IMG/VR virus record: IMGVR_UViG_3300031867_000452
Location: 1 to 27,783 of that record
Source: a virus
DNA: 27,783 nucleotides
Strand: one strand, 5' to 3'
The position numbers were made by a program, and so were the translations under genes. This document shows, piece by piece, positions 4,184 to 5,488 of the stretch. The notes below the pieces were generated by a model. The model was not told the origin of the DNA and ran no database searches. It worked only from the letters and a program-made list of their open reading frames with translations. How positions within the stretch are numbered: position 1 is the stretch's first letter; every line of letters starts with the position of its first letter.

Positions 4184-4198
4184 CACCAGTATAACGAA
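4184..4198 (+). repeat. Left inverted repeat CACCAGTATAACGAA
   Basis: Exact reverse complement of 4764-4778. Confidence 0.95.
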
Positions 4199-4460
4199 CC
4201 TTGTGCAAGTCCAGTATGTGAGCCTCAATTTTGGTTCAATCAATAGTGGTGCAAACAGTACGAAAACAGCAACAGTAACTGCTTGTCCAAGTGGGTACAC
4301 CACAATGATTGTTCCAAAAACTACAAGTTGGTGTATTGTGTATTCAAGTAGTGTGAGTGGCACTACATTATCTGTATCAGTTTCAAACAGTAGTTCAATT
4401 AGCCATACTTGTAGTTGTGGAGTATATGTTATATATTATCCAAGCACTTGGAACATTTAA
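4185..4460 (+). CDS. Silent alternative tail-fibre C-terminal domain (TSITN + 86 aa); no start or SD of its own
   Basis: The only plus-strand ORF with a protein-like beta-rich sequence (LVQVQYVSLNFG...GVYVIYYPSTWNI); begins exactly at the left repeat, in frame with the fibre crossover codons. Confidence 0.8.
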   Translation, partial: TSITNLVQVQYVSLNFGSINSGANSTKTATVTACPSGYTTMIVPKTTSWCIVYSSSVSGTTLSVSVSNSSSISHTCSCGVYVIYYPSTWNI

Positions 4461-5488
4461 AATGTGTAGTCGATTTGGAAACCTAAATTATAACCACTAA
4501 CACTACTACCAAGGTTATAAATCCCATAACTGCCATTATCGTATAGGTAGAATATGAATTGATTACTTCGCATAATCAAACGGTAAAAACTCCTTTTCGG
4601 ATAATAGGCACTTGGGATTGTAAAATCACCATAGTTATTAAAGTTCTCACCAGAGCCTATTGTGATGTTTGTACGATGACATATTATTCTTGCACATCTT
4701 GTAGTAGTGTTCACCCATAACTCATAAGTGGTGTTTTCGGCTACTTTTTCAAAAGTTCCAATATTCGTTATACTGGTGTCTAACGAACCCACCATACTAT
4801 CAACAGCCCCATTAATCACAGACTGACTAGCATTAACGCTTGTACCAATATTAGATAATGCATTACCCTCTGTCACATCACTACTGCTATGAGTATGCTC
4901 AGTATCCGCCTTACCACTTTCCAAACTACTCAAATCATCACGAATACCAGACAAATCAGACACCAAACCAGTAACATTAGATTGATTAATGCTTGCTGTG
5001 ACATCTGCAGATGAGCTCTTGAAACCAAAACTCAACCCAGTAACCACACCACCACTAGGGATAGTGATTACGATGTCATACTCTTTCAACTGCTTCAGCT
5101 CGACAACATCTCCAAGGTTACTATAATCAAGGTTGTTCCTGATAGGGGAGGATGCTCCAACTTCTGTAATGATTACACTACCATCCCCCTCTAAACTAAC
5201 AAAAGTAAAACCGCCAAAACGATTAAAGTTAGGATAAACAGTCAAACGATAAACCTGACTGGAGCCTGCATTATTTGTAATGGTTTCACCAATGCTTAAA
5301 TTACTGTTCGGAGTAATGCTGCAATCAGCAACCTTAGCCTTGACAACTGTTGTGCTATTCGGGAAAACACCACCAGTATCACCAGGCAAGCTGATATTAA
5401 CGGTCCAGTCAAAACTGTTACCTACAAGTATTCCATCATTCAAATTCTCACTATAAACTTTATTCCCATGCTTAAAAAAATCGGTCAT
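4457..5488 (-). CDS. Tail fibre / receptor-binding protein (343 aa in the current orientation)
   Basis: Follows the baseplate wedge genes; GGAGG SD; HTH motif and short coiled coil before the TSITN switch point; aromatic beta-rich C-terminal domain. Confidence 0.8.
   Translation of the reverse strand: MTDFFKHGNKVYSENLNDGILVGNSFDWTVNISLPGDTGGVFPNSTTVVKAKVADCSITPNSNLSIGETITNNAGSSQVYRLTVYPNFNRFGGFTFVSLEGDGSVIITEVGASSPIRNNLDYSNLGDVVELKQLKEYDIVITIPSGGVVTGLSFGFKSSSADVTASINQSNVTGLVSDLSGIRDDLSSLESGKADTEHTHSSSDVTEGNALSNIGTSVNASQSVINGAVDSMVGSLDTSITNIGTFEKVAENTTYELWVNTTTRCARIICHRTNITIGSGENFNNYGDFTIPSAYYPKRSFYRLIMRSNQFIFYLYDNGSYGIYNLGSSVSGYNLGFQIDYTF
4764..4787 (-). repeat. Right inverted repeat (4764-4778) embedded in the dyad TTCGTTA-N10-TAACGAA
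   Basis: ttcgtta 4764-4770 and taacgaa 4781-4787 are mutually inverted arms around tactggtgtc. Confidence 0.9.

Follow-up and report, generated by a model that had tools for sequence, protein, structure and literature searches.

The viral DNA studied here carries an exact inverted repeat inside the gene of a receptor-binding protein. Is the DNA between the two copies a switch that exchanges one receptor-binding head for another and, if so, which enzyme turns it? The window, that is, the whole stretch analysed, is an entire linear virus record of 27,783 bp that is about 63% complete. It encodes a terminase, portal, capsid, sheath, tape measure, baseplate J protein and pseudomurein-binding endolysin. 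Judged by these genes, it is a contractile-tailed virus (myovirus) of Methanobacteriales: the tail type follows from the baseplate J-like gene together with the sheath gene, and the host order from the pseudomurein-binding repeat in the endolysin.

514..1569, minus strand: endolysin with a pseudomurein-binding repeat (PF09373, E 2e-13)
3571..4119, minus strand: downstream tail/baseplate gene, 182 aa, syntenic in relatives; it fixes the outer flank of the silent site described below
6532..7893, minus strand: baseplate J-like gene (PF04865, E 2e-14; phrog_279, weak)
14713-15789: sheath gene

Comparison with GenBank phages gave no match to the window; the closest provirus lies inside a Methanobrevibacter MAG, at 69-72% DNA identity. 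A second fibre gene (2606-3475) contains phage-tail-repeat (PF12789) units encoded by 66-bp and 141-bp spaced repeats at 2798-3258.

Two unrelated heads between inverted sites

An initial annotation had read the locus as an invertible two-state tail-fibre cassette on the strength of a 15-mer at 4184-4198 that is exactly inverted at 4764-4778, with 565 bp between the copies. Checking the window sequence bore this description out, with every position and length in it correct. The pair is the sole exact 15-bp inverted repeat in the window, and TSITN is read in frame from both copies; inversion in silico turns the 343-aa product into one of 328 aa with 242 residues in common, the exchanged tips being 101 and 86 aa long. 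The stops of the two tips overlap in a ttaa (4457-4460), and BLASTP shows no similarity between the tips. The silent tip had been said to have neither an SD nor a start of its own. It indeed lacks an SD and has only T-runs upstream; an in-frame TTG at 4158 does open a mechanical 100-aa ORF, and the statement is true in practice.

Each 15-mer is part of a 24-bp quasi-palindrome made of a 9-bp arm, the spacer CACCAG and a second 9-bp arm (9-6-9). Spacer and inner arm together make up exactly the common 15 bp, the identity that a tyrosine recombinase needs. The outer arms stay put upon inversion, and that on the silent side is degenerate.

4175..4198, plus strand: silent-side recombination site; degenerate outer arm TTCTTTTTT, spacer CACCAG at 4184-4189, inner arm TATAACGAA
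4190..4772, no strand: invertible segment between the spacers, holding both inner arms and the two tips tail to tail; architecture conserved
4200..4460, plus strand: silent tip B (86 aa, rich in beta structure), which shares 97% identity with the tip expressed in P0011/P0121
4457..4762, minus strand: expressed tip A, 101 aa, predicted receptor-binding head fold; AlphaFold pLDDT about 90
4763..5488, minus strand: constant N-terminal 242 codons of the receptor-binding protein, a beta domain and then a helical stalk; SD present; 316 homologs
4764..4787, minus strand: recombination site on the expressed side, within the gene; outer arm TTCGTTAGA, spacer CACCAG at 4778-4773, inner arm TATAACGAA

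The receptor-binding protein matched no Pfam, NCBIfam or PHROG family. In an AlphaFold model of the 343-aa protein, a beta domain is followed by a helical stalk and then by a C-terminal domain predicted with confidence. This last domain, tip A, starts at the crossover (residues 244-343) and is, in the model, a receptor-binding head fold: it superposes on the head of TP901-1 ORF49 (Z 9.6, rmsd 2.7 A, 92 aligned) and on that of p2 ORF18 (Z 8.2), with a Foldseek E of 2.4e-3 to lactococcal receptor-binding heads. At about 12% identity to those heads the likeness is one of fold only, and the lactococcal genes are not invertible. Given the fold of tip A, the term fibre is better replaced by baseplate receptor-binding protein with a swappable head. 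For tip B, searches of the PDB gave no convincing sequence match, and a language-model search (Atlas) gave a weak lead to H-type lectin or gp53-like C domains (score 0.89-0.91).

The bare repeat would be weak evidence for any of this. In Markov shuffles, some exact 15-bp inverted repeat arose in 39 of 100, and one within 1 kb in 2 of 100. The case for a cassette is strong because of the reading frame, the site architecture and the conservation in relatives.

A conserved cassette in related viruses

Among the 316 homologs, a conserved N-terminus gives way abruptly, past the same junction motif, to differing C-termini. DNA searches and contig look-ups yielded 23 distinct two-site cassettes, the window counted: 20 that were tabulated, plus L319, L334 and L339. 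In all 20 tabulated cassettes, 7 of them found through protein homology and not through the pattern, the silent-side site arm is identical. Spacers are equal at both ends in 18 of the 20. Silent tips are intact in 22 of the 23 cassettes, and the one decayed tip (L038) belongs to one of the two cassettes with mismatched spacers. Eight of 15 tip families were seen both expressed and silent; tip B of the window is the expressed tip in P0011 and P0121 (97% identity), and tip A occupies the silent position in L005. The L005 contig starts exactly at the inner arm, a break expected if both orientations were present in that sample. Between different viruses, three whole cassettes are found in opposite orientation (80-85% identity). 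Pairwise comparison of tips gave a dN/dS below 1 in 30 of 31 pairs. Purifying selection can be seen between silent tips, at 0.22 and 0.44, other pairs lying at 0.63-1.6 with few changes.

The possibility of a chance repeat or an assembly artefact draws on the frequency of such repeats in shuffled sequence and on two related contigs, L014 and L017, that look chimeric at a common head. Against it, the same sites, frame and layout recur in 23 cassettes from independent samples and assemblers, and the silent head is an expressed protein elsewhere. Conservation refutes this explanation, to which we assign next to no probability. A frozen relic, as envisaged in the initial annotation, would combine a single orientation with a decayed silent domain; the intact silent tips and the opposite orientations among relatives present another picture. 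The same 23 cassettes, with shared sites, intact silent tips and tip families in both states, uphold the claim of a two-state invertible tip cassette. On these comparisons, the invertible receptor-binding-head cassette is real and conserved.

Does the cassette still flip? The sites could instead be sockets for occasional exchange of heads between viruses, with inversion a rare evolutionary event and the cassette mostly static within a lineage. Heads are indeed shuffled among unrelated N-termini that use the same socket, siphovirus-like ones included, and across siphovirus-like and myovirus-like genomes; some genes have one site and no silent head (L004, L010); and identical assemblies agree on orientation, four assemblies of one virus all showing the same one. 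Near-identical virus pairs included none with both orientations at these sites, and the exact inverted product of the window or of a tabulated cassette was absent among 173 proteins. The best protein match to an inverted product, at 96%, came from a different virus with another silent head, and P0020/P0127 was rejected as an inverted pair. A mostly static cassette is nevertheless difficult to reconcile with silent heads intact in all but one case, spacers that stay matched, the purifying selection that silent-silent pairs can show and the L005 contig that breaks exactly at the inner arm. We regard it as very unlikely. The cassette is very probably an active switch; flipping presumably continues in the window virus itself and would be expected to change its host range.

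In L003 (13567), L015 (4141), L049 (13001) and others, single dif-like sites with other spacers mark the join between domains in the Ig-like tail gene downstream. The window homolog of that gene (1591-2571) has lost the site.

A candidate dif site in host genomes

We searched 201 Methanobacteriaceae genomes for the site arms with a free 6-bp spacer, using a reversed control. The motif was present in 163 of the 201, far above the control. The host copies are intergenic and have longer palindromic flanks. The viral site can also be parsed as a 26-bp 12-2-12 site; the host copies vary over exactly the 6 central bases, which favours 9-6-9 over 12-2-12 and, as far as sequence comparison goes, fixes the geometry. 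The extended host arm closely resembles the loxP arm, with one extra T and a 6-bp instead of an 8-bp spacer.

About ten genomes share one copy, with the conserved spacer CTACAG; they belong to the genus in which the related provirus was found and 24 of 26 genomes have XerA. In the complete genome G009 (2,937,203 bp) this conserved site, at position 1,480,135, lies 181.4 degrees from cdc6-1, and the sampled GC skew flips sign within about 8 kb of it. This position, opposite cdc6 at the skew flip, makes the chromosomal site a candidate dif. The conserved site was also located at 181.7 degrees in G037 and at 183.5 degrees in G033, the latter a weak placement since G033 holds 20 copies. G096 had no copy near the antipode, and GC skew sampled in G096 and G033 was too noisy to place the terminus. 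Archaeal dif is defined as an intergenic 11-6-11 inverted repeat with AT-rich flanks (Cortez et al. 2010, PMC2958812), and the G009 site fits the published definition (PMC2958812, PMC5357621). Unlike a classical dif, which is single, the motif occurs 5-23 times, with differing spacers, in many host genomes, and the extra Methanobrevibacter copies sit in variable regions.

Compared with the candidate, the expressed site of the window matches at 17 of 18 arm bases and differs at 2 spacer bases, and the silent site matches at 14 of 18 arm bases; matches with at most one arm mismatch are expected by chance 2e-4 times per window. The spacers differ, CACCAG in the virus versus CTACAG in the chromosome.

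In the M. smithii-like genus (the genus of G148) the dif-like motif was not above control, and 120-140 kb around the antipode of G148, G094 and G178 held no shared palindrome. Two dif candidates in that genus were rejected. One, a palindrome-like match present once in each of 86 of 101 genomes, lies in coding sequence: it differs between genomes at third codon positions and translates to FGKICPNE, probably from RNA polymerase B. The second is TATA-like and missing from two complete genomes.

Window-targeting CRISPR arrays were found in two host genomes, G023 and G246, that are placed in different genera.

87-120 and 487-518: two further CRISPR protospacers for G246
2612..2646, plus strand: CRISPR protospacer, 35/36 spacer bases, array in G246
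18898..18934, plus strand: CRISPR protospacer, 37/37 to an array in host genome G023

G023 has both its perfect spacer to the window and a dif-like site. G246, a member of the M. smithii-like genus, has no dif-like motif; the repeat of its array is identical to that of G007, a member of the other genus, and the match may reflect a misbinned array or a broad host range.

Some host loci carry several sites. In G023 (C17 22283-43804; L187, L188), small, varied genes are separated by at least 11 dif-like sites, the first of them 2.5 kb past xerA; the arrangement resembles the cassette arrays of integrons or of pdif type, here in the chromosome of a Methanobrevibacter. An inverted pair in G037 (C1 971094/971522; L180), with identical spacers and one weak TTCTTT arm, encloses a 430-bp intergenic stretch directly upstream of a gene for a 1662-aa adhesin-like protein and is a possible invertible promoter at the terminus. 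Direct-repeat pairs with identical spacers in G009 (C1 986050/986659 and 2138495/2150137) flank segments of 0.6 kb and 11.6 kb, possibly Xer-excisable modules.

Host XerA as a candidate invertase

Among the window ORFs no recombinase adjoins the cassette, and no recombinase flanks any cassette examined. We favour the reading that host XerA inverts the cassette. The receptor-binding protein of this Methanobrevibacter myovirus would then be under a phase switch that includes no recombinase of its own. We put the probability of this reading at roughly 60%. The initial annotation had noted neither the 9-6-9 site nor its resemblance to the host dif candidate, nor that an invertase is missing.

In the proposed mechanism, the 9-6-9 site at the end of the constant 242 codons would mimic host dif; past the two tail-to-tail head domains comes its inverted counterpart, with an identical 6-bp spacer. 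Host XerA would bind the arms and exchange strands across the common spacer, so that about 580 bp flip and either head A or head B is fused in frame. With a spacer that is not that of the chromosome, the viral sites should be unable to recombine with host dif; flipping is probably slowed by the weak outer arm, which stays in place; and the same junction may double as a standard socket for head swaps between viruses. Since XerA requires no FtsK and accepts variant arms (PMC5357621, PMC8371274), two matched inverted sites should invert.

We also considered other enzymes. Serine recombinases (PF00239) were absent from five cassette-family virus records, two of them complete; with none in the relatives and a 6-bp spacer in the host copies, the serine-invertase reading of the 26-bp site was rejected. 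The cassette could alternatively be inverted by the virus's own 370-aa tyrosine recombinase, whose gene usually lies after the holin, a position just before which the window ends. The recombinase was present in 5 of 5 virus records tested and is the only one in both complete genomes; it has the R-H-R-Y catalytic set in L002, L004, L010 and L019, and a family member adjoins a 997-bp segment that is 100% identical in both orientations (L044 versus L045). That segment, however, has the crossover TCAGCGAA, a different type of site. About 430 bp downstream of the recombinase gene, a perfect half-site with a degenerate partner is found (L019 17141, L002 18067, L004 14896), but it overlaps a TATA-like promoter, in the promoter region of a small gene resembling AbrB/MazE, and G002, G003 and G005 do not have it; no full site was found near the viral recombinase gene. 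Moreover, the distance from recombinase to cassette varies from 1.5 to 12 kb, the recombinase also occurs in the cassette-free viruses L002 and L004, and the L052 cassette exists without it. Host genomes lacking the recombinase family still hold sites, while those with its closest homologs have almost none. Inversion by the viral enzyme is thus, in our judgement, unlikely.

Host XerA is favoured by this independence of host site counts from the viral recombinase family, by the provirus L052, which has a dif-like cassette and no tyrosine recombinase on its 50-kb contig, and by the G023 array beside xerA. The CRISPR-linked G246 and its genus, which lack the motif, and the multi-copy host sites count against it. 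A broader proposal is that host XerA, the chromosome-dimer resolvase, is a shared enzyme for inversion and head exchange in Methanobrevibacter viruses, acting on dif-mimic sockets with private spacers so that many unrelated viruses need encode no recombinase for this, and that the hosts keep Xer-site gene-cassette arrays; we give it even odds.

If inversion by XerA is real, Xer hijacking would extend from integration to programmed phase variation, and the rumen methanogen genus would have a testable dif sequence. About 15 head families on one scaffold would form a natural panel for finding receptors on pseudomurein-walled cells, the switch would bear on virus-host dynamics of rumen methanogens, and methanogen genetics would gain a compact inversion switch.

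Comparison with known inversion systems

To our knowledge, the invertible adhesins of bacterial phages and haloviruses always come with a dedicated invertase. The initial annotation knew of no such switch in viruses of Methanobacteriales; a literature search, with most subscription papers outside its reach, found neither an invertible adhesin in methanogen viruses nor Xer-driven adhesin inversion.

The general features of an invertible tail-fibre or receptor-binding protein are present here: inverted in-frame sites inside the adhesin gene and intact alternative C-termini. With Mu G/Gin and P1 C/Cin the cassette shares a constant N-terminus, an in-gene crossover and two alternative C-termini. 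Those systems have an adjacent serine invertase, a 2-bp core and a Fis enhancer, and chaperone genes are inverted too. The cassette differs from them in that related complete genomes have no PF00239 gene and host copies have a 6-bp spacer, and the serine invertase beside the segment that marks the Gin/Cin/Pin type is absent from the window and from the five relatives. Mu is among the systems cited in PMC9881135.

The invertible tail-fibre module of the haloviruses phiCh1, phiH1 and ChaoS9 is closer in being that of archaeal myoviruses, in altering the C-terminal part of an adhesin and in tyrosine-type chemistry (proposed here for the cassette). There, int1, encoding the tyrosine invertase Int1, is central in the module, between repeat-containing fibre genes (PMC6471424, PMC8651126). 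Unlike phiCh1, the window has a segment of about 580 bp with two heads only, no enzyme gene and sites that resemble host dif; a tyrosine invertase inside the invertible region is absent, two heads filling the segment in 20 of 20 tabulated cassettes.

The IMEX elements CTXphi, TLCphi, VGJphi and GGI exploit host Xer/dif; they integrate at dif via Xer and require spacer compatibility with it (PMC5357621). The likeness lies in dif-like sites carried by the element, one arm being degenerate, in dif geometry with matching arms, and in the proposed reliance on host Xer. In contrast to IMEXs, the virus would use its two sites, whose spacer is not that of the host, to invert a coding cassette, and its archaeal host has XerA as the single enzyme. 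A dif-compatible spacer is absent, and provirus L052 sits beside TctA and secretion-ATPase genes. The host site resembles archaeal XerA/dif in being an intergenic 11-6-11 inverted repeat with AT-rich flanks, opposite the origin in G009; unlike classical archaeal dif, it recurs in variable regions, and the large M. smithii-like genus yielded no such site.

Invertible segments in related viruses

L044 and L045-L047 are the same virus, with flanks 99.7% identical, and differ in the orientation of a three-tip segment of 997 bp (11364-12360). This inversion is proven. The segment lies within an Ig-like adhesin gene, adjoins its own tyrosine recombinase and crosses over at TCAGCGAA; one of its tips is related to tip B. 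The Methanobrevibacter MAG provirus L052 has a second invertible cassette (12474-13876), in an Ig-like adhesin gene and with the spacer CACCTG, of which one site is perfectly palindromic; a further orphan module follows at 13882-14511. At the right ends of L044 and L052, related tail and lysis modules stop at the holin and the same host genes (TctA, secretion ATPase) adjoin, which may point to an integration site common to both or to a tail that has been domesticated.
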